From: a virus
Length of the DNA: 64,000 nucleotides
Direction: 5' to 3' (one strand)
IMG/VR virus record: IMGVR_UViG_3300031576_000004
Span: 32,001-96,000 of that record
Below, piece after piece: positions 6,504-55,421 of this stretch. The notes under the pieces were generated by a model, which searched no databases, had not been told where the DNA came from, and saw only the letters and a program-made list of their open reading frames with translations. A program made the translations under genes and the position numbers. The stretch's first letter is position 1, and each line of letters opens with the position of its first letter.

Positions 6504-7160
6504 GTGGAACAAGAAGATCTAACATTCGAAGACCTGCCACATAAGTTGCGACAATACCAGAACGACAAGGCATGTTCTTTCTGTAAGGGCAAATGCTGCA
6601 AGACAATGCCTGGGATCACACACCCAACCGATTGGGGCGCACCAAATAAAAGAGAAATGCTATCGCGCCTAAAAGCCGCGTTTATAAGCGGCCGTTGGGC
6701 GCTCGACTGGTGGGAGGGCGATCCTAGATACGATAATCATCTCGATGCTCCAAATAACTCAAATAGTGTTACCTACTTCGTTCGTCCTGCAGTTAAGAAC
6801 AAAGAGGGCGAGATGAAACATGCCTCATGGGGAGGCGAGTGCACCTTTTTAACTATGGGTGGGTGCTCCCTAGAACACGATGATCGCCCAACGGAATGCA
6901 GAGCTCTGGAGCCGAACCAGAAGGTCTTCACAGATAAGACAGTCGGCTGCATATCAAAGCTTGGCGAAAAGAAAGAATTCACCATAGAGTGGCTCCCTTA
7001 TCAAAAGGTCGTTAAGGAAGCAATCTCTCAGGCAGAGGGAAGCTTGATCGATACTCCTACAATAGATTATGTCAGAGAGGCAGCCAGAGATCGGGTTAGA
7101 TTTAATAGGGGGAAAGAAGTCAATGACAGCACCAGGGATACTGCCACTAATAACGCCTGA
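6504..7160 (+). CDS. YkgJ-like cysteine-cluster (CxxCxxxCC) protein
   Basis: CSFCKGKCC...ECTFL...GCSL..DRPTECR pattern. Confidence 0.7.
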   Translation: MEQEDLTFEDLPHKLRQYQNDKACSFCKGKCCKTMPGITHPTDWGAPNKREMLSRLKAAFISGRWALDWWEGDPRYDNHLDAPNNSNSVTYFVRPAVKNKEGEMKHASWGGECTFLTMGGCSLEHDDRPTECRALEPNQKVFTDKTVGCISKLGEKKEFTIEWLPYQKVVKEAISQAEGSLIDTPTIDYVREAARDRVRFNRGKEVNDSTRDTATNNA

Positions 7161-7421: not shown

Positions 7422-7979
7422 ATGAACTGCATTAATTGCGGAAACGAATTCGACGAGAGCTTGCTATATAAAGTCCAGCCAGAAAATAGCACGCAGAGGT
7501 GGTGTGTCGTATGTGGTGCCAAGGAAGAAGCCCGAAGCGCAGAAGACGACGGTCTAATCAGCTCCGATAAGCGCATTCGGCCCGCCCGCTATAGGCTAGA
7601 CAGTGCTCTGTGGAAGAAGAACGACTACGACAACAAGCCCGCAAGAGCAACAAAGCTAGATTCAGCGGTGGGGCAGAAGAAGGTCCATCCAAAGGCGCAG
7701 GCTGGGCAGATCACAATCCAAATGCCGCAGCTATCTGCCGGCGCAATGAAGACAATACAAAAGCAACAGACTCAGGCCGCGGTTGCTGCGCAGACAACCA
7801 TTGCTAACGAAGATGTTGTTGCCAAGCTCGCCGCAATCGCGAAGCTTGTTTATCGCGTCTACCAGCAGGAAGAGAGTGATGGAACCGATCACGGCTCAGA
7901 CACAGTCGAGGCCATGGAAGGCGTTAAGGATCTGTACCAGGACGCAACTGGAGAAGAGCTTGACTTCGATAGAATATAA
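7422..7979 (+). CDS. Hypothetical Zn-ribbon protein directly upstream of the pentamer array
   Basis: CINC...CVVC, AGGAG RBS. Confidence 0.6.
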   Translation: MNCINCGNEFDESLLYKVQPENSTQRWCVVCGAKEEARSAEDDGLISSDKRIRPARYRLDSALWKKNDYDNKPARATKLDSAVGQKKVHPKAQAGQITIQMPQLSAGAMKTIQKQQTQAAVAAQTTIANEDVVAKLAAIAKLVYRVYQQEESDGTDHGSDTVEAMEGVKDLYQDATGEELDFDRI

Positions 7980-7996
7980 GTGATATAAGTTCTTCC

Positions 7997-9411
7997 AGCA
8001 TAGCCAAGCAATACATACTCAAACCGAGCAGCAAAACAGAACAGTACCGGCCCTGACGCAGCAGCTTGACGTAATGGCTCCCCATCCGATTTAGCAGCTA
8101 CATCCGACACGGCTACACGACATCGCACTGAGCAGCGAGACCAGATATCATATTCACCCGACCTCATGGAGCAGTGCGACGAAACGGAATGCGATTGATC
8201 CCCATATGACGTAGCGGCGGGACGTAATGAGATTAAACCGAATGAAGCACTACCGCATGGAGCAGCTACACTTCACCCGACTTCGCGACGCGATATGGAG
8301 CAGCGACACACCATTTCGTGACTCGTAATCGAACGTGATACAGCAGCAAGGCGAGACAACATGGTATTGAGACGTTATATAGCAGCGACGCGAGACGCGG
8401 CACGACGGGGTTACGCCAGATGAAGCAGCATCACGACATAAGACGAGACAAAGATTTCACGAGATGTAGCAGTTACACCTCATCCGATGCGCCGAGACGA
8501 GATCCAGCAGCTACGCAAGACCAAACCTCACGGGATAACATGCATTTAAAGCGGCTAAACCCCACCACGCCACATTCTATGCAATTGAATGACATGCATT
8601 CATAGCAGCGAGCTCCTACACCATCCAACTTTATGGGACGCCACGCCCTGTCATAAAGCAGCAAGACGTCACGGGACTTGATTTCGTATCATCCCATGGA
8701 GCAGCAAGATAAGACCGCTCAGCACGTAAGTTTCATGAAGCAGCAAGACGACATTACATATACTCCTTATCCAGCAGCATCATACGGCTACACTGGACGA
8801 GACCTAATGTGACGTAGCAGCGTAACGCCATGTTCCCGCACCGTATTAAACGTAGCAGCGAGATTACACCGGACCGGATTTCATAAGACGAAGCGGCAAG
8901 GCAAGACCACACCAGATCAGTTACCATGAAGCGGCACAGCACAACCTGACGAGATGACCCACATTCTCACAAGATACATTCGTAGCGGCATCATAATGCT
9001 GGACGACACATCTCAAGATGCAGCAGCAAAATGACACACCCTTTGACGAAGCAGCGAGCCATGACCAGATGTTCCCGAATATAGGCCTAGCGGCTACATA
9101 TGACGACATACGGCACAGCAAAGCAGCTTCACGACACGAGGCGCGGTCAGACAAGATCTAGCAGCAACATAACACTACTCTGGACTTAATATGATGAAGC
9201 AGCAAGATCCGGCACGACCTCTAGTTACAATACTTGATGCAGCAGCATGACGAGTCGAAATCGGCATAAGATGGCACAGGATGAAGCAGCCAGACGAGGC
9301 GAGACTGAGGCACGGCTACACGGCATGAAGCAGCTACACACAATAGAATCCCACGATGCTCGATAAATTCATAGCAGCAGGACGAGACACCACTACATTT
9401 CATGGAGCGGC
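7997..9411 (+). repeat. Non-coding pentamer-periodic array (NN-VAY units delimited by AGCAGC/AGCGGC); candidate guide-RNA array
   Basis: 35 delimiters from 8027 to 9406 enclose 34 units of length 8+5n (22 exact, 12 with one extra nt); no credible ORF. Confidence 0.9.
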
Positions 9412-9826
9412 TAAATGAAAACAAAGTATAAGAAGAAAGACACGAAGGTCCTTGTGGACCTTCTCAGTCTGGTCAGCTGTTCTGTTTCAGAGGGATTCCT
9501 AAATACCCTGACACAAGCGCAACGCGATGAGGCTGACAAGTGGGCATGGCGAGAGCATATGGTCGCAAGCGATCACAGAGAATTAAAGAGACTTCAAAGA
9601 CCCGCATTCCTTCCAAAGGGGTAACACATGAAGGGCAACGATATGATCCCAAGGAAATCTGGCCTTAAAGACAGGTCTGTTGGATGGGGTGGCCAAAAGT
9701 GTCCATGCTGCAAGGTCAGCTCTGCTGTAATGAAGCTAGAACACCGGCGCATTCGCAGGATCCTAAAGCAGGGCACTAGGAACACGAACCCATACGTTGG
9801 CGAGATGTAATCAGGTATAAGGACTT

Positions 9827-10111
9827 ATGAAGAAATCCATAGCTAAAAAAGTGGACCATCCAGCCCATTACAACGCTGGGAAGATCGAGGTTATCGACGC
9901 TATTGAGTCCTGGGGCCTTGGCTTCCACCTAGGCAACGTCGTAAAATACGTAGCCAGAGCCAGGCACAAAGATAATTACCTAGAGGATATTCTGAAGGCC
10001 AATTGGTACCTTGAGCGCGCCATTAACAAAGAGTTAAAAGAAGAGAAAACATGGGGGAAAGCCTTCGCCGAAAGGAAATGCCGTGACCGCAAAGCTAGGC
10101 GCAGAACATAA
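9827..10111 (+). CDS. DUF3310-like phage protein
   Basis: VDHPAHYNAGKIEVIDAI...GNVVKYVARA..K...EDILKANWYL. Confidence 0.85.
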   Translation: MKKSIAKKVDHPAHYNAGKIEVIDAIESWGLGFHLGNVVKYVARARHKDNYLEDILKANWYLERAINKELKEEKTWGKAFAERKCRDRKARRRT

Positions 10112-31294: not shown

Positions 31295-33667
31295 GGTCCA
31301 ATTCTGAAGCTATTTCCGCCGCCGCAACGTCTTGATGCTTAAGGGGTAGCCACAGGATCTCACGGAAGGATGTTGTAATTGTTCCATTTTCTACTTCAAT
31401 CTACATCCATTTCCACGACTAATCAAGCTCCTTGTTCAAGGGCCAACTATGTCGTTGCTTTGCGTATTATGCTAAATGGGCCAAAAAACGGCCTGCAGCA
31501 CGTCAGAACGATCCGGTGGCTAGTCCTGGGCATCTGGGTCGTGTTGTTTGGCTAGGATGTCAAGGACGGGGCGCTGCTCATCGGCTAGGAAGACTTCCTT
31601 GGCCAGATCTGGGAGATCCATCCCAGTCTTCTCCAAGCAGCAGGTGCACACGGCATTAAAGTACCCCAGCCAGAAGATAGACTCCTGACTTACACCCCTA
31701 CTTCCACAAACCGAGCATCCAGTGCTGCCTGGTTCGGTCAATGTACGCCCTCCTCACTGCTTCATGTTATAGCACTTATAGGCGTGGATGGCAATAGGGC
31801 GTTTTCCGGTATAAGAGTATGTGAAGGCATTTGTGCTTCGGTTCTTATTTGAGAGGGGAGAATTGGCGGTGTCCTGTGGCTCATTACGAAGAAGGCGCTC
31901 GGAAGGAGTTGATCAGCCTTATCAGGGTATTGGTAGAGAAAGAGCTCTACCCAACAAAAGAGCAGGTGGATAAGGCGATCGACATTGCGTTGGACAGGAT
32001 GATTAAAGACGTGAAGCATAATATCTCACGTAATTAATCCTTTTGTCGTGCGGCGGCGGGGCAACGTTGAGCCTCGCTGCCGCATCTTATCAGTCACCAA
32101 TGTTTATTAGCTTCTATATCCAATTTAACCACACAGGAGGCATCTATGCCTAACATTTGCGGGAGCACGAGGAACCATCATAATGCACAGACAATTATTT
32201 TTGATGGATACTCTAACTGCTTTGACGTGAAAACACCGAAAGACAAGTATGACAGAAATTATGTATACGCTGCTCTGCGTTGCGCTTCATGTGGAGCATT
32301 AAAATTCCACGTTGGGTCATATACAAGTGGCTGGTTAAAAGCTGGAATAAAAATGTCGAAGCTTAGATGGAAAAAGCATTGGAGCCAAAAATGAACACGC
32401 CAACAACTCCAATCACGCACGGAGGCACAGAGCGCACATATCAATTCTGCAAATGCAGGGAATGCGGCAGAATCGAGCGCTGCACACCAGATTTCGATTT
32501 CTATACCACAGCTAGAGACGGAGACACAGGACCGCTTTATTGCGAGAGCTGCATTTACGCTGTCCACGACCGACACAAGGCAGAGGATAAAGCGCGCAAA
32601 GAGGCTGAAGGAATAAGGAATATTGGATGGAAAACATTACAACTAACAACATAGATAGGAGACCAGAATGAATTACGCCATGGCTTTGCTCGTCGGCGTT
32701 GTTATTGGCTCAGGCCTCTGCAAGCTGACGTGGCTCTATTTCGGGAAGCCATGCAGCCCGATGTGCAATGGAAATGAAAATTACCAAAAGCTCATCGATG
32801 CATGCAAATGGTCTAAATGGCTTATTGATCAGAAGGAATACAAAGAAGTGCGCGAGCGTTTAAACGCCACAGGCTGGCAAGACACAGAGATAATTTATGA
32901 GATGCTTGAAACCGCGCTTAAACAGGAGAACCCATGCACGACATAATCCAAAACTGCTGCGTCGCCATTTGCTTTGGGACCACAGCTAATATCCACAGCA
33001 ATAACGATCTTTCCATGAGCTGCTCTTTCGCGATCTTCGGATACATCCTCAGCTCTATTAGGTGTGATATCAGGGATATCAGGAGGAAGTAATGGACGTA
33101 CAAGATCTTTTCGAAAAGCACGAAGATGAATTCATCAAGTTCGACAGGGTGCCTGAGCACACACGCGTGACCAATAGGGCAGACATTAATGCCTTTATCC
33201 TGCTGGATAAGTTTGTTCCTGGAGCCACCGATATGGTGTGCTCCGCTGGGCACGATGAGATCTGGCTGGACGTAAGCCCAGATGATCTGCAGGCAGGACT
33301 CAATGCCGCCGGCCTCTCTGAGCAGGATAAAGAGAATGTGGTCATCACTCTTGCCCGCTGTGGAGTGCGCTACGACAGCGAAACTGATTCATTGGCCATG
33401 TTTGTCTAATGCATCCTCGCTATCTCCATGTTTGCGATGGACACCGGTTCCTGGGATATCACGGCATTACAGATCTGTGGTATTGCCCAGATAAGGCTGG
33501 AGACCATCTGCTAATAGCCAGATACAGCAGTGGGGTGGCTGATTTCTCGTCCTATTCTGTAAGCTCAATATCTCTGAAAGAATTCAATAACTGGAGAGAA
33601 GAGATATTCAGCCGCGTCAGAGAGATGGAGCTGACAGGGTTCTATGTCCCATAATCGCAGGAGAAAC

Positions 33668-47881: not shown

Positions 47882-49324
47882 GTGAATAAGAAGACGATCC
47901 GTGGCAAGGACTACGAAATCACTATGTCTCCGATGTCTCCAGAAGACATAAAGAAATTAACCGAAAAGACAGATCTCGTAGGCATAGAAGGATTAACAAT
48001 GGATGTTTCATTTGAATGGAGCGAAACAGGAGACAAAATGCAAGGATCGTCAATTGGAGCGATGGAAGCTGTAGAGGTAGCTCGTCCTAGCAACGAGCCT
48101 CCGATGCAGGCAACAAAGGCCGAGAGAAATCGGCCAATGATTAGGAACAAGCTCGATAAATCAAAGATGGTTACACATCCACTTGGCATCCCAGGTGGAT
48201 TTAGCTCTCAGTTCCACTTCAAGCCTCAATCCATGATTGAGTACACCATCGCCATTAAGGGCGCTGCGGATCTCTTCCAGCAAATGGACTATGTCAACGC
48301 TGGACCGAGAAACTACCTGCAAGTGGGACTAATGGAACACCAGGAATGCTTGGCAAATGGAGCAGCCGTTAAGAACATAGATGGGCATCTTACATCAGTT
48401 GTTCTTTCTACGAATCCCGACAACGGTATCTTCTCCGCTTCATTCCATAGTTACAACGAAGATGCCATGCAGAAGATGGCCAGCGAGTTTCATCGCGTTT
48501 GCAGCGAGGGAAACTTTTACCGTGGGAAGCATCTTAAGGCTATGGACTTTGATTGCCCACAGCCTCTGGTATTCCTATCTCCTCCAGCAAATCCTCTAAT
48601 CTACGGATTCAAGGAAGAGCAGGATGCAATTAATATGCATGCTGTTCGGTATTTCGAATGTGAAGAGATCCATAAGATCGCCCCTCAGAGAGGAGTTCTT
48701 CTCTATGGGCGTCCAGGCTCTGGAAAGAGTCTATTGGTCTCAAAGACGAAGTACGAATGCCTACAGAAAGGCATTACAGTGGTTGAGGCAAGCATCGAGG
48801 GTATGCGAGAGATCGGTAAGTGGTTCGCTCTTATCGAAGCATGGCTTGCCCCTGCCCTAGTTGTCCTTGAGGACGTGGATCTTATTGGTGGAGACAGGGA
48901 TATTCCTGAACTGCCCCACCAGCTTACTACAGATCTTCTGTCCAGCCTTGGCGGCAACACCAGGCGCATTAATCCCATCGTGACCATTGCCACGACCAAC
49001 CGCTTGGACTCTCTCGATAACGCATTCCTTCGGGCTCGGCGAATGGACAAGGTTATGGAGATCAATGGTCTCCAGCCTGATTTTAAAGCCGAGTTGTTCC
49101 GCCGGCATGGGATGAAGGTGACAGAACAGGCTCTTCAAGCCGCGGTTACTCAGCTCGGACCAGACACTACTGGAGCCGACGTTGAAGAGATTTCTGTCAG
49201 CACTCTGACCTATAGCCATTTCGGAATGCCACATGAAGAGGCCTTCACCAAGAGCCTGGGAGAATGGGCTAAGGGCCATTCCGCTAAAGCAAATCTTGGC
49301 TTTAACAAGAAGCAGCAAGACTAA
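47882..49324 (+). CDS. AAA+ ATPase
   Basis: GVLLYGRPGSGKS, VVLEDVD and ATTNRLDSLDNAFLRARRMD (second region of homology). Confidence 0.9.
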   Translation: MNKKTIRGKDYEITMSPMSPEDIKKLTEKTDLVGIEGLTMDVSFEWSETGDKMQGSSIGAMEAVEVARPSNEPPMQATKAERNRPMIRNKLDKSKMVTHPLGIPGGFSSQFHFKPQSMIEYTIAIKGAADLFQQMDYVNAGPRNYLQVGLMEHQECLANGAAVKNIDGHLTSVVLSTNPDNGIFSASFHSYNEDAMQKMASEFHRVCSEGNFYRGKHLKAMDFDCPQPLVFLSPPANPLIYGFKEEQDAINMHAVRYFECEEIHKIAPQRGVLLYGRPGSGKSLLVSKTKYECLQKGITVVEASIEGMREIGKWFALIEAWLAPALVVLEDVDLIGGDRDIPELPHQLTTDLLSSLGGNTRRINPIVTIATTNRLDSLDNAFLRARRMDKVMEINGLQPDFKAELFRRHGMKVTEQALQAAVTQLGPDTTGADVEEISVSTLTYSHFGMPHEEAFTKSLGEWAKGHSAKANLGFNKKQQD

Positions 49325-49328
49325 CCTA

Positions 49329-49518
49329 TCCGTGTGGCTGCGAGGAAGGACTCGCAACAGTTAATAGAACAGAAAGGCACGGCTATCTGGTGGTTCCAGA
49401 TAGTTGTAATGGTCAATCTCCTATTGGTTGGAATGTGTCGCCAGCGGGCGGCCTCCGCAAATAGCCTCACCAGCCCTGAAAGCGGAAAGCCGGTGTCAAG
49501 TCCGGTCCACACGGGCCA
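49329..49518 (+). ncRNA. tRNA-like RNA (about 190 nt)
   Basis: TCCGTGTGG/CCACACGGG stem then CCA; D-arm-like TGCGAG-GAAGGA-CTCGCA; T-arm GCCGG-TGTCAAGT-CCGGT. Confidence 0.65.
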
Positions 49519-49575: not shown

Positions 49576-50325
49576 ATGAAACTTACGAGTAAGGATCTTG
49601 AAGAAGTTTATGAGGGCGAGACTCGGTTTGTTAAGGCAAAGGCGATGTTCGTTACCCCTCTGGTTGGCGGCGTTCCTGCCAGCCGTGAGGGTGTAGAGAA
49701 CTATGTCGAGTTCGCCATGAATCTTGTCCGTGACTCCCAGGAGTTCAAGGACAAGGTAGCCGAGATCTTGAAGGAAGAGATCGGCGAGAGAGAGATCAAG
49801 CCAGATGAGGGCGAGAAGGATGAGGTTGCGTCCTATGGCGTTAACTGCATCCGCAAGGATAAGTTCGGCCATTTCCTGATGGACTTCCAGATCAAGGCCA
49901 ACCTGAAGTGCGCTGCATCAAGGATCGGGCTATTCGTGGCCGATAAGGCCGCCGGCCGTAAGGCTGGAGCCAAGGGAGATATGGCTGAGCTCGGACGAGT
50001 TCACGCTATCGGTGCCTCATTGAGGGATGTTGAAAACAAGAGGAAGATCTATCTTCTTCAGAATGGCGGAACCCCAGTAAAGACTGTCTATGAGAAGTTC
50101 ATGGGCAAGGTGAGCAACGCCTCTGGCTCTCACTCCATCGTCCATGACTCTGAGGTCGCCCCTGCTGGAACCTGGTTCGAATTCGAGTTCAGGGCTCCGG
50201 ACAAGCGCCTCAAGGCTGAGGACTTCAAGCGCATCTTCGCGCACTCTGGTATTATCGGCTTCGGTTCCGCTCGTTCTCTGGAGCGCGGCAAGGTCGAGTA
50301 TCAGGAAGTTGAGATCGAGGATTAG
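49576..50325 (+). CDS. Stand-alone RAMP/Cas7-like protein
   Basis: MFVTPLVGGVP (beta1), QIKANLK, SEVAPAGTWFEFEF and the C-terminal G-loop GFGSARSLERGKVE. Confidence 0.75.
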   Translation: MKLTSKDLEEVYEGETRFVKAKAMFVTPLVGGVPASREGVENYVEFAMNLVRDSQEFKDKVAEILKEEIGEREIKPDEGEKDEVASYGVNCIRKDKFGHFLMDFQIKANLKCAASRIGLFVADKAAGRKAGAKGDMAELGRVHAIGASLRDVENKRKIYLLQNGGTPVKTVYEKFMGKVSNASGSHSIVHDSEVAPAGTWFEFEFRAPDKRLKAEDFKRIFAHSGIIGFGSARSLERGKVEYQEVEIED

Positions 50326-50774: not shown

Positions 50775-50849
50775 GGGTCCTAAGCATTAACAGTGATGCA
50801 GTTGGCTCTTAACCAACAGAAGAGGGTGCGATTCCCTCAGGACCCACCA
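50775..50849 (+). tRNA. tRNA-Lys(CTT)
   Basis: Cloverleaf; encoded CCA. Confidence 0.9.
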
Positions 50850-50851
50850 AT

Positions 50852-50926
50852 GGGCTGTAAGCTTTAAAAGTGAAGCAGTTGGCCTTTAACCAACAGAACT
50901 CGGAGCGTTACCGAGGCGGCCCACCA
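50852..50926 (+). tRNA. tRNA-Lys(TTT)
   Basis: Cloverleaf; C33; T-loop AGCGTTA; CCA. Confidence 0.88.
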
Positions 50927-50941
50927 ACTAATGATTTAAAC

Positions 50942-51017
50942 GGTGCTATGGTGTAGCGGCTCTGCATGCCTGGTTGTCAACCAGTAGGTCCGAGTTCGAC
51001 TCTCGGTAGTACCGCCA
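50942..51017 (+). tRNA. tRNA-Asp(GTC)
   Basis: Cloverleaf; G73; CCA. Confidence 0.9.
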
Positions 51018-51032
51018 GATTAGATCGGTTCG

Positions 51033-51045
51033 GTTCTTTGAAAAC
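51033..51045 (+). promoter_or_regulatory. boxA-like antitermination element
   Basis: GTTCTTTGAAAAC resembles rRNA-operon boxA. Confidence 0.55.
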
Positions 51046-51109
51046 TTTGCGTGCGGGAACACCTGACTGAAGGAACTTCAGTAGGCCCGCATGATGTTGT
51101 GTGGTAAAT

Positions 51110-51185
51110 GCGCGCTTAACTCAGCGGCTAGAGTGCCTCTTTTACACGGAGGAAGTCAGGGGTTCGAGTCCCTTAGCGCGTACCA
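51110..51185 (+). tRNA. tRNA-Val(TAC)
   Basis: Canonical cloverleaf; CCA. Confidence 0.93.
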
Positions 51186-51187
51186 GT

Positions 51188-51262
51188 TGCCCTGTCGTCT
51201 AATTGGCAAGACGCGAGACTTTGGATCTCGCTATTCAGGTTCGAACCCTGGCGGGGCAACCA
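51188..51262 (+). tRNA. tRNA-Gln(TTG)
   Basis: Cloverleaf; U1-A72; CCA. Confidence 0.92.
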
Positions 51263-51272
51263 ATTTAAATAT

Positions 51273-51347
51273 CGGGCTCTAGGCTCGGAGTGAGCCGCTT
51301 GTTTCGGGAACAAGAGGCGGCGTGTGCAACTCACGCGAGCCCGACCA
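51273..51347 (+). tRNA. tRNA-Pro(CGG)
   Basis: Cloverleaf; C1-G72; CCA. Confidence 0.88.
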
Positions 51348-51348
51348 T

Positions 51349-51423
51349 TCAGGAGTAGTTCAATTGGTAGAACGACAGACTCTGGATCTGTAGATCTTGG
51401 TTCGATTCCAGGCTCCTGAACCA
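51349..51423 (+). tRNA. tRNA-Gln(CTG)
   Basis: Cloverleaf; CCA. Confidence 0.92.
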
Positions 51424-51442
51424 ATAGTAAACGATAAAATAT

Positions 51443-51517
51443 GGACCTGTAGCTCAAGGGTCAGAGCACGTGCCTTATAAGCACTAGACGGTGGTTCGAC
51501 TCCACCCAGGTCTACCA
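51443..51517 (+). tRNA. tRNA-Ile(TAT)
   Basis: Cloverleaf; loop CT-TAT-AA; CCA. Confidence 0.88.
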
Positions 51518-51518
51518 T

Positions 51519-51592
51519 GCGGGTTTAGCTCAAAAGAAGAGTGTTAGCGTGACATGCTAAAGACAGAGGAGCGTTACCTCTAACCCGCACCA
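51519..51592 (+). tRNA. tRNA-Val(GAC)
   Basis: Cloverleaf; T-loop AGCGTTA; CCA. Confidence 0.88.
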
Positions 51593-51593
51593 T

Positions 51594-51668
51594 CCACCCT
51601 TAACATAGAAGTCTATGTGCCTGTCTGATACGCAGGAAATCGTGGAGCGTTACCACGAGGGTGGACCA
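51594..51668 (+). tRNA. tRNA-Ile(GAT)
   Basis: Cloverleaf; T-loop AGCGTTA; CCA. Confidence 0.82.
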
Positions 51669-51687
51669 ATATAACAGGAGTTTATTC

Positions 51688-52056
51688 ATGCCATACAAAG
51701 ACCCAGCCATTCAGAGAGCATTCCAAAACAAATTCTTAAAAGAAAGACGGGATCTATGGCTAGCATCTAATGGCCCATGCTCCTGCGGATCTCGAATAGA
51801 TCTTCAAGTCGACCATGTGGATCCAAGCAAAAAGGTGGATCATAAAGTTTGGTCATGGTCAGAAAAAAGAAGAGCCGAAGAGTTGTCTAAATGCCAAGTT
51901 CTTTGCAAGAAGTGTCATAGAAAAAAGACGAACAAAGACAACAATTATGGACAAATCCACGGCACATATAATTCGTATAAACGATATTGTTGCCGGTGCG
52001 CTCCATGCAAAAAAGCTTCGGCAGAAGATAGAAGAAGGTGGAAGCGAAATAGATAA
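51688..52056 (+). CDS. HNH endonuclease within the tRNA array
   Basis: CSCG...LQVDHVDP...CQVLCKKCH; AGGAG RBS. Confidence 0.8.
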   Translation: MPYKDPAIQRAFQNKFLKERRDLWLASNGPCSCGSRIDLQVDHVDPSKKVDHKVWSWSEKRRAEELSKCQVLCKKCHRKKTNKDNNYGQIHGTYNSYKRYCCRCAPCKKASAEDRRRWKRNR

Positions 52057-52059
52057 CTT

Positions 52060-52134
52060 CGGGGTGTAGCTCAGAGGAAGAGCGCCTGGTTTGGGACCAG
52101 GAGGCCGAGATATCATAATTCTCCACCCCGACCA
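52060..52134 (+). tRNA. tRNA-Pro(TGG)
   Basis: Cloverleaf with an atypical T-loop; CCA. Confidence 0.85.
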
Positions 52135-52136
52135 AT

Positions 52137-52212
52137 GGTGGCTATAGCTCAAGTAGTAGAGCACGGGTCTGTGGAACCTGTTATGCGAGTGCAAGTCTCG
52201 CTAGTCACCCCA
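52137..52212 (+). tRNA. tRNA-His(GTG)
   Basis: G-1/C73; cloverleaf; CCA. Confidence 0.9.
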
Positions 52213-52221
52213 ACACAAAGT

Positions 52222-52328
52222 GCGCCGACCGATCGGATGGACGATCAGTGGGGATATCCCTTACCCATGAATACGCCCGAAAGGGGAATAGTGGGATAGC
52301 CAGAATCAATCCTGGCGCGGCGTTACCA
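52222..52328 (+). ncRNA. tRNA-like RNA (about 107 nt)
   Basis: GCGCCG/CGGCGT stem; D-arm GATCG-GATGGA-CGATC; T-arm GCCAG-AATCAATC-CTGGC; ends in ACCA. Confidence 0.6.
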
Positions 52329-52329
52329 A

Positions 52330-52403
52330 GGGCATTCAGCTCGGAAGTCGAGCGCTTCCCTGAAGAGGAAGAGAGCCAGGAGCGTTACCTGGAATGCCCA
52401 CCA
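52330..52403 (+). tRNA. tRNA-Phe(GAA)
   Basis: Cloverleaf; T-loop AGCGTTA; CCA. Confidence 0.88.
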
Positions 52404-52412
52404 ATCAAACAT

Positions 52413-52486
52413 GGGCTTCTAGTTCAACGGTAGAACGTCAGCCCTGCAAGCTGAATATCGGAGTTCGATTCTCCGGAGGTCCACCA
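52413..52486 (+). tRNA. tRNA-Ala(TGC)
   Basis: G3-U70; C33; CCA. Confidence 0.9.
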
Positions 52487-52487
52487 T

Positions 52488-52561
52488 CCGGCTGTAGCTC
52501 AATGGCAGAGCGCTAGCTTCCCAAGCTAGTTACGGGGGTTCGATTCCCCTCAGCCGGTCCA
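52488..52561 (+). tRNA. tRNA-Gly(CCC)
   Basis: Cloverleaf; U73; CCA. Confidence 0.92.
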
Positions 52562-52562
52562 A

Positions 52563-52636
52563 CCACCTGTAGCTCAATGGTAGAGCGTCTCTTTGCCAAG
52601 GAGAACACGGGAGTTCGATTCTCCTCAGGTGGTCCA
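52563..52636 (+). tRNA. tRNA-Gly(GCC)
   Basis: Cloverleaf; U73; CCA. Confidence 0.92.
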
Positions 52637-52644
52637 TTAAAATT

Positions 52645-52718
52645 GCACGTGTATCTCAATGGCAGAGAGCGAGTTTTCCAAACTCGTTACGAGGGTTCGA
52701 TTCCCTCCACGTGCTCCA
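52645..52718 (+). tRNA. tRNA-Gly(TCC)
   Basis: Cloverleaf; U73; CCA. Confidence 0.92.
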
Positions 52719-52719
52719 A

Positions 52720-52793
52720 GCCCGCATAGCTTAGTGGCAGAGCACCTCATTGGTAATGAGGAGATACTGGTCCGATTCCAGTTGTGGGCTCCA
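52720..52793 (+). tRNA. tRNA-Thr(GGT)
   Basis: Cloverleaf; CCA. Confidence 0.92.
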
Positions 52794-52794
52794 A

Positions 52795-52868
52795 GCTACT
52801 GTAGTTCAATAGTAGAATCTCTCACTCGTAATGAGAGGACGGCGGAGCGTAACCGCCCAGTAGCTCCA
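52795..52868 (+). tRNA. tRNA-Thr(CGT)
   Basis: Cloverleaf; T-loop AGCGTAA; CCA. Confidence 0.88.
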
Positions 52869-52869
52869 A

Positions 52870-52943
52870 GCTGGTATAGTTCAACGGCAGAATAGGTGCC
52901 TTGTAAGCACTTGATGAGGGTTCAATTCCTTCTACCAGCTCCA
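52870..52943 (+). tRNA. tRNA-Thr(TGT)
   Basis: Cloverleaf; CCA. Confidence 0.92.
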
Positions 52944-52954
52944 ATAAGATCCGT

Positions 52955-53039
52955 TCAGGGGCAGCATGATGGTCATGCGCCTGGCTGTTAACCAGCGTCC
53001 GCAAGGACAATGTGGGTTCGAGTCCCACCCCCTGAGCCA
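52955..53039 (+). tRNA. tRNA-Asn(GTT) with a long variable arm
   Basis: Loop CT-GTT-AA; V-arm GTCC-GCAA-GGAC; G73; CCA. Confidence 0.85.
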
Positions 53040-53040
53040 C

Positions 53041-53128
53041 CCCGTACTAGGCAGATAAAGATTCTGCGCAGACTGTAAATCTGAAGCCTTAAAAGCCACT
53101 CCTGGAGCATTACCAGGGTACGGGACCA
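53041..53128 (+). tRNA. tRNA-Tyr(GTA), C1-G72 type
   Basis: CCCGTAC/GTACGGG acceptor; loop CT-GTA-AA; long variable region; CCA. Confidence 0.82.
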
Positions 53129-53137
53129 TTAAATATC

Positions 53138-53350
53138 GCGGGGAGACATGTTCGAAGCAGGACCAATCCTTAATCGGATTGATATAGTGTAATAGGCAGC
53201 ACACCCGCATTTGTTTTAGATATGGAGAGAGAGGTGGGTTCGATTCCCACGCGGTGGAAGGAAGCATTCGTATGCCGTAGCGGTATAGGATCCCGAGTAG
53301 TAAGCGGGGTCTTGCATGCTGACAGCCGTTGTCTGGGCCGAGCTCTCCGC
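53138..53350 (+). ncRNA. Structured RNA with embedded tRNA D- and T-arm motifs
   Basis: GCGGGGAG/CTCTCCGC closing stem; TAGTGTAATAGGCAGCAC and GTGGGTTCGATTCCCAC inside. Confidence 0.45.
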
Positions 53351-53355
53351 ATTTT

Positions 53356-53430
53356 GCTCTCGTCGTATACTAGTTAATACCTCTGGTTCTCATCCAGAAA
53401 AAAGCGGAGCGTAACCGCTCGAGAGCACCA
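53356..53430 (+). tRNA. tRNA-Glu(CTC)
   Basis: Cloverleaf; T-loop AGCGTAA; CCA. Confidence 0.87.
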
Positions 53431-53432
53431 AC

Positions 53433-53506
53433 GGCGCATTCCTCTATCGGCAGGAGACCTGGTTTTCACCCAGGCAAGACGAGTTCGACTCTCGTATGCG
53501 CTACCA
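53433..53506 (+). tRNA. tRNA-Glu(TTC)
   Basis: Cloverleaf; CCA. Confidence 0.9.
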
Positions 53507-53513
53507 TAAATTC

Positions 53514-53584
53514 GGGTCGTCTTCTGGGGAAGAGCTAGAACTCCAAATCCTGGCAGGAAGGTTCAATTCCTTCACGACCCGCCA
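53514..53584 (+). tRNA. tRNA-Trp(CCA), compact D-arm
   Basis: GGGTCGT/ACGACCC acceptor; loop CT-CCA-AA; G73; CCA; 71 nt. Confidence 0.78.
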
Positions 53585-53592
53585 AAATCTAA

Positions 53593-53669
53593 GGCCGATA
53601 AGCTAAAGCATAGGAAGCGCCTGCCTGCAGAGCAGGTATTAATTGGTGAAACTCCAATATCGGCCTCCA
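53593..53669 (+). tRNA. tRNA-Cys(GCA)
   Basis: Cloverleaf; U73; CCA. Confidence 0.87.
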
Positions 53670-53690
53670 ATCTTTCTGATATAATACGGG

Positions 53691-53764
53691 CGCGGGATAG
53701 TGAAGTAGTATCACGTGAGCCTCATAAGCTCAAGACCTCCGTGCGAACCGGAGTCCCGCTACCA
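53691..53764 (+). tRNA. tRNA-Met(CAT), initiator-like
   Basis: CGCGGGA 5' end with an unpaired C1:U72; CCA. Confidence 0.85.
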
Positions 53765-53783
53765 CCTAATATTAGGAGGGCGC

Positions 53784-54113
53784 ATGCCGCCAAAGTTGCT
53801 CACTGCGAACAGAAAAAAGTATGACGCCACTTACGCTGTTAAAACAAAAAAGACAAGGCATGAGTTCTTTTTAAAAGTCGGTTCTTATTGTCTTTTCTGC
53901 AGAAAGCGAAAACATCTGAAATGTCATCGTACTGATTGGATCCGACACGTTCCTTTTGAGAATATGTCGCGTGTAAAGCTTGCGGCAGAAAATCCAAAAG
54001 AATACGCGAGAGTTTGTTTCGGCTGCCATTATGGGGTTCATTGGCTACATGACCGTTTTGGACTTACTTGGCCTGAGATTCTCGCGCTTAAAGCTAGAAA
54101 ACGGAAGGTTTGA
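53784..54113 (+). CDS. HNH-like protein within the tRNA array
   Basis: CLFC..HLKCH...VCFGCH; AGGAGG RBS; 3' end overlaps tRNA-Ser. Confidence 0.55.
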   Translation: MPPKLLTANRKKYDATYAVKTKKTRHEFFLKVGSYCLFCRKRKHLKCHRTDWIRHVPFENMSRVKLAAENPKEYARVCFGCHYGVHWLHDRFGLTWPEILALKARKRKV

Positions 54114-54193
54114 GCATTGGCAAGCTCACCCGCCTTGAAAGCGGACAGTCGGTGAAAGCCGGCTTGCGAGTCCGACTCTCGCACCTTCCTCCA
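54103..54193 (+). tRNA. tRNA-Ser(TGA)
   Basis: Long V-arm; CCA. Confidence 0.88.
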
Positions 54194-54202
54194 ATTATGC
54201 AT

Positions 54203-54287
54203 GGAGAGCAAACTAACCGGTGGTTAGCCTAGTCCCGAAAACTAGTGGGCGCATTGCGCTGGGGTGCGAGTCCTCTACTCTCCGCCA
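54203..54287 (+). tRNA. tRNA-Ser(CGA)
   Basis: Long V-arm; C33; G73; CCA. Confidence 0.8.
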
Positions 54288-54294
54288 TTAAAAT

Positions 54295-54407
54295 AGCCCT
54301 GTGCGTTCTGTGCGCGACAGAAAGAGCCGTTGAGCTCCCAGAGGGGTATCTCTAGTTGAGCCGCGGTGAAACGAACGGGTGATCCAATTCACTCACAGGG
54401 CTTTCCA
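54295..54407 (+). ncRNA. tRNA-like RNA (about 113 nt)
   Basis: AGCCCTGTG/CACAGGGCT stem; T-arm-like GGTGA-TCCAAT-TCACT; ends in TCCA. Confidence 0.5.
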
Positions 54408-54408
54408 T

Positions 54409-54496
54409 GGATAGGATTGAGAGCGGCTACTCTACCCAAGTTGGAAGCTTGGCAGGTGTAAAAGCCTTGTGGGTTCGACGCCCACCCTATCCGCCA
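54409..54496 (+). tRNA. tRNA-Ser(GGA)
   Basis: Long V-arm; G73; CCA. Confidence 0.85.
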
Positions 54497-54503
54497 AAAC
54501 TAT

Positions 54504-54591
54504 GGAGTGAATTGCAAGCGGCTATGCTAACCGGTTTGCTAAACCGACACGGGTAACACCGTTGAGCGTTCGACTCGCTCTCACTCCGCCA
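54504..54591 (+). tRNA. tRNA-Ser(GCT)
   Basis: Long V-arm; G73; CCA. Confidence 0.85.
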
Positions 54592-54593
54592 AT

Positions 54594-54667
54594 GGCTAGG
54601 TAGTTCAATAGTAGAACGTGGGTTTCATAAGCCCAAGACGATGGAGCGTAACCATCCCTAGCTACCA
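54594..54667 (+). tRNA. tRNA-Met(CAT), elongator (lysidine Ile2 not excluded)
   Basis: Cloverleaf; T-loop AGCGTAA; CCA. Confidence 0.85.
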
Positions 54668-54668
54668 A

Positions 54669-54753
54669 CCGCTCGTGGGGGAATAGCAGTCCCATCCGGC
54701 TCAGAACCGGACGGTTAACAGCCATGCAGGTGCAACTCCTGCCGAGCGGACCA
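54669..54753 (+). tRNA. tRNA-Leu(CAG)
   Basis: Long V-arm; A73; CCA. Confidence 0.87.
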
Positions 54754-54760
54754 AACTAAT

Positions 54761-54842
54761 CCCGAGGTGGTGGAACAGCAGACACAGCAGCCTCAAAAAC
54801 TGCCGCGAAAGCGTGAGAGTGCAATTCTCTCCCTCGGGACCA
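54761..54842 (+). tRNA. tRNA-Leu(CAA)
   Basis: Long V-arm; A73; CCA. Confidence 0.87.
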
Positions 54843-54845
54843 TTC

Positions 54846-54931
54846 GCGGATGTGGCGTAACGGCAGCCGCACCAGCTTGAGGTGCTGGCGCTCGAAAGGG
54901 CGTGCAGGTTCGACTCCTGTCATCCGCACCA
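54846..54931 (+). tRNA. tRNA-Leu(GAG)
   Basis: Long V-arm; A73; CCA. Confidence 0.92.
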
Positions 54932-54937
54932 ATCTTT

Positions 54938-55011
54938 GTCCCTGTAGGCTAATAGAAGACCACAGCGCTACGAACGCTGAAATCCTCGTGCAAATCGAGG
55001 CAGGGATACCA
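54938..55011 (+). tRNA. tRNA-Arg(ACG)
   Basis: Cloverleaf; CCA. Confidence 0.87.
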
Positions 55012-55020
55012 ATAAATAAT

Positions 55021-55105
55021 GGGGGAGTGGCGGAACTGGCAGACGCGCTAGCCTTAGGAGCTAGTGGGTAATACCGTGCAGGTTCAAATCCTGTCTCCCT
55101 CACCA
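55021..55105 (+). tRNA. tRNA-Leu(TAG)
   Basis: Canonical; long V-arm; CCA. Confidence 0.93.
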
Positions 55106-55106
55106 T

Positions 55107-55177
55107 GCCCCGCGTGCCGAGCACATCCAGCTCTTCTAAAGCAGGATCGCCAGGATTAACACCTGGGCGGGGTACCA
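55107..55177 (+). tRNA. tRNA-Arg(TCT), truncated D-arm and extended anticodon stem
   Basis: GCCCCGC/GCGGGGT acceptor; loop CT-TCT-AA; CCA; 71 nt. Confidence 0.7.
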
Positions 55178-55186
55178 ACTTTAAAT

Positions 55187-55261
55187 GCCCGATTCTTCCA
55201 GCAGATAGGATACCGCTCTCCGAAAGCGGCGACCCGTGTGCAAGTCACGGATCGGGCACCA
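55187..55261 (+). tRNA. tRNA-Arg(CCG)
   Basis: Cloverleaf; CCA. Confidence 0.87.
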
Positions 55262-55263
55262 AT

Positions 55264-55338
55264 GGGCCTGTGGTGTAACGGATAGCATGCTCCTTTCCTA
55301 AAGGAACGGCGAAGGTTCAATTCCTTCCAGGCCTACCA
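55264..55338 (+). tRNA. tRNA-Arg(CCT)
   Basis: Cloverleaf; CCA. Confidence 0.9.
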
Positions 55339-55344
55339 TTCTGT

Positions 55345-55421
55345 GCGGGGGTGATGTAATTGGCAAACATCTGCGACTTAAAATCGCGGTTCTACGGGTT
55401 CAAATCCCGTCCCCCGTACCA
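55345..55421 (+). tRNA. tRNA-Leu(TAA) with a short variable loop
   Basis: Loop CT-TAA-AA; 5-nt variable loop; CCA. Confidence 0.85.

Follow-up and report, generated by a model that had tools for sequence, protein, structure and literature searches.

A candidate vrRNA array of short guides and its presumed stand-alone RAMP protein partner in the genome of an uncultured 163-kb phage

The region at positions 7997..9411 (+ strand) of the window, the 64,000-nucleotide stretch of viral DNA analysed here (positions 32,001 to 96,000 of IMG/VR record IMGVR_UViG_3300031576_000004), is very probably an array of vrRNAs belonging to an RNA-guided, DNA-binding system of the VIPR type, partnered by a RAMP protein of 249 aa and silencing genes of rival phages. 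The observations behind this reading are the grammar of the array, the RAMP fold of the protein, the linkage of such arrays to such proteins across phages, and the gapped, in-frame matches of the decoded guides. A VIPR system pairs one ancestral, stand-alone RAMP protein (Vipr) with vrRNAs made of alternating GGY/NN units; one protomer occupies each unit, the NN bases pair with double-stranded DNA while leaving out every third base of the target, and most targets lie in rival phages and satellites (10.64898/2026.04.26.720920,.720927, 10.64898/2026.10.15.759431). The type II VIPR of Escherichia phage SUSP1 has Vipr YP_009199429.1, vap1, and four vrRNAs (10.64898/2026.04.26.720920,.720927, 10.64898/2026.10.15.759431). 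Passages of 10.64898/2026.04.26.720920 mention seven VIPR types, variant units and 'staggered' arrays, and state that the types other than type II have other architectures; a report of October 2026 describes 21 clusters with non-canonical triplets near Vipr-like folds, detected through entropy periodicity, naming GAC/NN and CAC/NN (10.64898/2026.10.21.760802).

The array consists of 34 full units, preceded on the leader side by a partial one that begins near 7998. The pattern AGC[AG]G[CT] occurs 35 times as a delimiter (26 AGCAGC, 7 AGCGGC and 2 AGCAGT), from 8027 for the first copy to 9406 for the last, with counts, types and end positions exactly as claimed in the original prediction. From the rest of the 163-kb genome 1.4 delimiters were expected (Poisson P 7e-36), and over 2000 shuffles of the array region the count averaged 1.6 and peaked at 9. 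The 34 units run from 28 to 54 nt; 22 have lengths of 5n+3 and 12 of 5n+4, the other residue classes being empty (binomial P 2e-8 for 22 of 34 in one length class). Pentamer logos anchored at both unit ends showed that positions 1-2 vary, that position 3 is G/C with some A, that position 4 is A (about 80%) or G, and that position 5 is C or T only; the fixed triplet of the array is S-A-Y (GAC 41, CAT 33, CAC 29 and GAT 27 of 219). Identity at lag 5 was 0.336, compared to 0.242 +/- 0.014 for other windows of the genome, and this measure, which had been suggested as a check, agrees with the logos in supporting the predicted 5-nt grammar. Fourier power at period 5, taken in 300-nt windows, did not single out the array region because the phase is reset at every unit; the lag-5 identity and the anchored logos do single it out.

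Dynamic-programming parsing resolved each unit into 5-10 steps, a step being two variable bases plus the S-A-Y triplet. All 12 of the one-nt-longer units are in phase at both ends and contain one internal three-base variable step each. In 21 of the 34 units a G stands two bases ahead of the delimiter, and the boundary is therefore read as the last step of one unit (G-N + AGC) abutting a second triplet (A/G-G-C), which accounts for the +3 phase shift of the units. The 'delimiter' is thus a pair of fixed triplets not separated by a variable dinucleotide, and a unit is laid out as an opening triplet (A/G-G-C/T) followed by 5-10 steps, the last ending in AGC. The variable dinucleotides differ in every unit.

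The array region is non-coding, as judged from its period-3 power of 0.57 (genome median 3.47) and its longest ORF of 92 aa, and the prediction that it holds no credible ORF is borne out. Likewise in line with the prediction that this is not a CRISPR array, the window contains no CRISPR-like family of 23-50-nt repeats; the array delimiters are 6 nt. A search of Rfam with the array gave no match, and the units showed no stable fold (z about 0 vs shuffles). No second delimiter cluster was found elsewhere in the phage genome; a delimiter-rich bin at about 25.5-27 kb of the contig was considered as a second array and rejected as ordinary coding sequence. The sequence GATATAAG at 7982 is a candidate promoter site and occurs twice in the whole genome; a search for sigma-70-like promoters had no result.

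The source genome is a 163,302-bp single-contig virus, and the array lies in its + strand early region, with a 185-aa ORFan (7422-7979) as upstream neighbour and a 69-aa ORF (9415-9624) as downstream neighbour. The three upstream ORFs and the small downstream ORFs had no informative Pfam/PHROG match, with the exception of a DUF3310 gene at 9827-10111. A second assembly has the same 1436-nt gap between the same array-flanking genes. Searches for close relatives of the phage revealed no DNA similarity beyond 69 nt and a terminase at best 27% identical, and the array-flanking protein had no relative among viral contigs. Two genes upstream of the array, a 218-aa Cys-rich ORF (6504-7160) with C-x2-C-x3-CC near its N-terminus had no family match.

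The presumed protein partner of the array is encoded at 49576..50325 (+ strand), and was assigned by structure prediction and fold search as a 249-aa stand-alone RAMP/Cas7-fold (Vipr-like) protein. The protein had no sequence match in Pfam, NCBIfam or PDB, and thus no Cas match, and phmmer searches with SUSP1 Vipr and vap1 as queries found nothing in the phage genome. The AF2 model (17 homologues; pLDDT 84, pTM 0.78) was compared to PDB by Foldseek, giving 147 matches at E<=1e-3, and all among those listed are CRISPR effector (RAMP) entries; the best PDB fold match listed is Csm3 (E 5.5e-7), to which the model aligned with a Z of 10.5 using VIA-align. The nearest predicted models are viral lone RAMPs (E 2e-12, TM 0.63-0.72). 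An exhaustive profile search put 561 representative clusters in the protein family, and the family conserves a C-terminal glycine-rich loop, G-[LF]-G-S-x-[KR]-x-x-E-x-G-K-[FV]. When the family was aligned to 114 SUSP1-type Viprs by hhalign, a match of 87% (E 3.7e-6) was obtained over the C-terminal 50 columns only, a part comprising the last strand, helix and glycine loop; weak colinear matches to SUSP1-type Vipr were seen at helix-1 and the G-loop. The published Vipr clade is delimited by PSI-BLAST from X1U2U4. In SUSP1 the G-loop residues D177 and W178 hold the two G's of GGY (10.64898/2026.04.26.720927), and these residues align with Ser-Ala/Cys in the 249-aa family, as would fit a change of fixed triplet.

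The RAMP gene is immediately preceded by a 480-aa AAA ATPase gene (47882-49324), which is probably not an accessory gene since it is not conserved beside the RAMP homologues. The flanks of the RAMP gene at 49329-49518 and 50332-50479 fold far better than shuffles (z of -2.9 and -3.8, respectively), and the downstream flank closes with a 12-bp terminal stem. ARAGORN calls neither flank as a tRNA. A block of 33 tRNA genes, on the + strand at 50775-55421, begins 450 nt past the RAMP gene, which places this gene at the head of an RNA-gene block.

Linkage between protein and array was assessed at 14 fetched distinct loci encoding RAMP homologues. At 12 of these an array lies directly upstream of the gene and on its strand, with GC[AG]GC delimiters, spacings mostly 3 mod 5, and NN-xAC pentamers, and a few of the loci have further arrays downstream of the gene. 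Distant relatives of the RAMP protein (E 1e-17 to 1e-24) are accompanied by NN-GAC arrays that have another delimiter and the same abutting-triplet boundary. The window's genome lacks an array flanking the vipr gene, the feature present at 12 of the 14 homologue loci; its single array precedes the RAMP gene by 40 kb, unlike in the published loci. The RAMP gene in this genome, together with the homologues situated beside like arrays, points to a VIPR-type system with an S-A-Y scaffold. No accessory (vap) gene emerged, in that no protein cluster was common to at least three loci within 3.5 kb of the RAMP gene (BLASTP, 15 loci; remote homologues would escape this comparison).

Several features of the relatives' arrays were recorded along the way. 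The NN-GAC arrays at L016:60-420 and L017:390-870 are delimited by CCTTG[C/T]GAC and not by AGC[A/G]GC. At L003:5351-5456, two adjacent 10-step guides are paralogous, with differences at three variable dinucleotides and in a few bases of the triplets; they resemble alternative versions of one guide, directed against variants of the same target. A called 237-aa gene at L005:1301-2014 lies wholly within a continuous array of 46 delimiters and is almost certainly a false gene call; translation of arrays also produced spurious 'protein clusters' in the neighbour comparison.

The rule by which the units would be read was evaluated with 219 decoded guides, 34 from the window and 185 from relatives, by scanning 292 kb (the phage genome plus the relatives' loci, with arrays masked) at skips of 0-3, with order-shuffled decoys as control. 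The sole perfect long match arose at skip 1. The guide at L015:3873-3922, with 9 steps and the last before vipr, matches its own vipr gene 18/18 at L015:4307-4332; the site covers codons 103-111 of vipr, within the conserved helix-1, and every skip falls on a wobble base. Duplication cannot produce such a match, since it is gapped. The same guide matched the homologous site of two other vipr genes at 16/18 and 15/18. This suggests autoregulation, or it could represent an attack on rival VIPR systems in which self is hit as well.

The original prediction had allowed for either two or three variable bases being read per step. Among the three matched guides, the third base of the step agrees with the target in 1/9, 3/7 and 2/8 cases, which is chance level; reading of three contiguous bases per step is thereby ruled out, and two bases per step are read. 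In silico, the NN-x register of these three guides coincides with codons in such a way that each skipped base is a wobble base, and on that basis the published rule, two read and one skipped, appears to hold for this type of array. The prediction had further proposed that a (V)AY scaffold in place of GGY could be a new code; a scaffold of this kind, S-A-Y, is indeed seen, and the code is not new, for the read-out follows the published rule and GAC/NN and CAC/NN were already reported (10.64898/2026.10.21.760802).

Candidate targets of the window guides were found on one 13.5-kb viral contig, L025, which encodes a DNA polymerase, terminase, SSB, major head protein and tail protein, has no vipr, and shows no detectable similarity to the window's phage. 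The guide at 8930..8983 (+ strand; 10 steps) matches L025:5110-5135 exactly with its first 9 steps, i.e., 18 of 18 bases, at codons 2-10 of an 83-aa DUF3310-family ORF. The guide directly before it in the array, at 8892..8929 (+ strand; 7 steps), matches L025:5898-5917 14/14, at codons 7-13 of the next gene upstream, on the same strand; adjacent guides thus have their sites in adjacent genes, and at both sites the match keeps the reading frame, wobble bases being the ones skipped. These matches are what the prediction that the variable bases spell a target would lead one to expect. The phage's own DUF3310 gene (9827-10111) has only 13/18 with guide 8930, and no guide of at least 7 steps matched the phage genome at one mismatch or fewer.

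For guide 8892, a perfect match on L025 was obtained from 1 of 420 permutations (the real order) and from 4 of 20000 random 7-step guides, so that the chance of a second perfect 7-step match on L025 is about 3e-3, before adjacency and register are considered. The guide 8930 match taken alone is within the background of such scans, and the guide 8892 site is Gln-rich and of low complexity. L025 has 13 relatives of about 17 kb each, two of which are matched by guide 8892; in one close relative the site of this guide differs only at a skipped base. It is plausible, from the decoded matches, that guides 8892 and 8930 target a pair of neighbouring genes in a small podophage-like virus, which would make the two viruses a candidate pair.

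A plausible target was obtained for 2 of the 34 window guides, 8930 and 8892 on L025; the other 32 guides were not above decoys on the 14 relatives of L025. Exact skip-1 scans of public collections were also run with the window guides. Guide 8604 (20 bases) matched no viral contig, and matched one metagenome contig and one Iamiaceae MAG, of about 70% G+C, with the frame ambiguous. Guide 8213 matched five contigs with skips at codon position 1, which count as one event because the contigs are near-identical; a single event, skipping codon position 2, came from guide 8550, and guide 8773 had two matches with skips at codon position 1. All four were treated as background since no second guide matched the same contig.

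Several other explanations were weighed against a guide array served by the phage's own RAMP. The array might consist of solo, or decoy, vrRNAs that load onto and misdirect the Vipr of a competing phage and have no connection to the RAMP protein of this genome. The array is not adjacent to the vipr gene here, and solo vrRNA loci have been documented in satellites and phages (10.64898/2026.10.15.759431), both of which would suit decoys; however, the RAMP family of this genome elsewhere adjoins arrays with the same delimiter and scaffold, and both matched targets are ordinary genes of a small phage without vipr. We regard decoys as very unlikely, and place at about the same low level the proposal that the region is some other structured or regulatory non-coding RNA, such as a protein sponge or processed leader, which merely resembles a guide array. 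That no Rfam family matches the array leaves room for an RNA of this sort, but its units are without a stable fold and their grammar is positional, not structural; moreover, such an RNA would account neither for the target matches nor for the RAMP linkage.

A DNA-level element was the alternative against which the original prediction had itself been set: the repeats could be protein-binding iterons of a replication origin, or a packaging or partition site, and not be transcribed as guides. A dense run of short repeats, non-coding and situated in the early region, is what such an element would present. Iterons are near-identical, whereas here each unit has variable dinucleotides of its own; at 12 of the 14 loci, in unrelated phages, a RAMP gene accompanies this grammar; and an iteron model gives no function to gapped, in-frame matches with foreign genes. 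A DNA-level element is accordingly held to be extremely improbable, and the predicted non-contiguous guide-RNA array resembling VIPR is upheld by the lone RAMP gene, the linked arrays, and the gapped matches under the published rule.

Compared to the SUSP1 system, the phage described here likewise carries a lone RAMP and RNAs of 5-nt steps, each with a fixed triplet and two variable bases; in both, two bases are paired and one is skipped, on the wobble position, early codons of rival genes are matched, and there is no self-match. The two differ in the fixed triplet (S-A-Y here, GGY in SUSP1) and in the corresponding residues of the G-loop (Ser-Ala/Cys vs Asp-Trp), as well as in the guides, which number 34 with 5-10 steps here and four with 10-16 steps in SUSP1. 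The pseudoknot 3' tail of about 40 nt that caps the filament in SUSP1 has no counterpart; the invariant structured 3' tail of type II VIPR is absent from the array units, which are separated only by 6-nt junctions. The protein is 249 aa, compared to 195 aa for SUSP1 Vipr, with sequence similarity confined to the C-terminal 50 residues; the BLASTP comparison of 15 loci yielded no vap gene, and 40 kb separate the array from the protein gene.

The array belongs to the already reported non-GGY branch of VIPR. It shares scaffold triplets and a Vipr-like fold with the non-canonical arrays of 10.64898/2026.10.21.760802, where the protein is nearby, and its clade is probably the same as, or neighbouring to, that one, as far as the available part of that report allows comparison. 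Those arrays are described as motifs repeated 10 times beside the protein, and the accessible portion of the text gives no delimiter grammar, targets or skip rule. The 'staggered' vrRNA arrays of Fig. S18 in 10.64898/2026.04.26.720920 are, going by the figure legend alone, comparable in having back-to-back guides, the start of each being marked by the end of the one before; they have a 1-nt overlap where the present array has an abutting-triplet junction. As with the Cas7 backbone on a Class 1 CRISPR crRNA, a RAMP filament would run along the guide with a thumb breaking the pairing periodically; unlike Class 1 CRISPR there are no 23-50-nt repeats, spacers, other cas genes or adaptation module, and the period is 5 with 2 paired bases instead of 6 with 5 paired.

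We propose that the array is transcribed rightward, as the flanking genes and the co-orientation of array and gene in relatives suggest, and that the transcript would be cut at or near each AGC|RGC junction to yield RNAs some 28-54 nt long. Judging from its homologue, SUSP1 Vipr, the RAMP protein would line the RNA in multiple copies, one per 5-nt step, each protomer holding the S-A-Y triplet and exposing the two variable bases. The filament would then bind double-stranded DNA as NN-x-NN-x, two bases paired and one skipped, and binding within the first codons of rival phage genes may block transcription, as in the published SUSP1 work. The array may thus serve as a panel of about 34 guides, two neighbours of which would be aimed at two adjacent genes of one virus. 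Since guides have only 5-10 steps (10-20 read bases), the shortest would be poorly specific alone.

The guides of 5-10 steps, their lack of a 3' tail, and the distance of 40 kb between array and protein gene are unusual traits. We tentatively raise the possibility, which we hold somewhat short of even, that they define a distinct VIPR architecture. Tail-less, very short guides (5-10 steps) would have their ends set by abutting triplets, acting as a stop/start signal for filament assembly or cleavage, and this boundary logic recurs in distant relatives (CTTGC|GAC compared to GN-AGC|RGC); large panels could stand far from the protein gene; and some members would carry a guide against the helix-1 codons of vipr, which may represent autoregulation or attack on a rival VIPR.

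An RNA-guided class that is months old would by this reading extend to an uncultured 163-kb phage, and the two-read, one-skipped code gains support at the sequence level as holding in the non-GGY (S-A-Y) branch too. The system would furnish a natural case for the study of triplet recognition, with Ser-Ala in place of Asp-Trp in the G-loop, and of how tail-less guides are delimited. It also provides a concrete, predicted phage-vs-phage pair, in which a large phage would silence the first codons of two genes in a podophage-like virus of about 17 kb.
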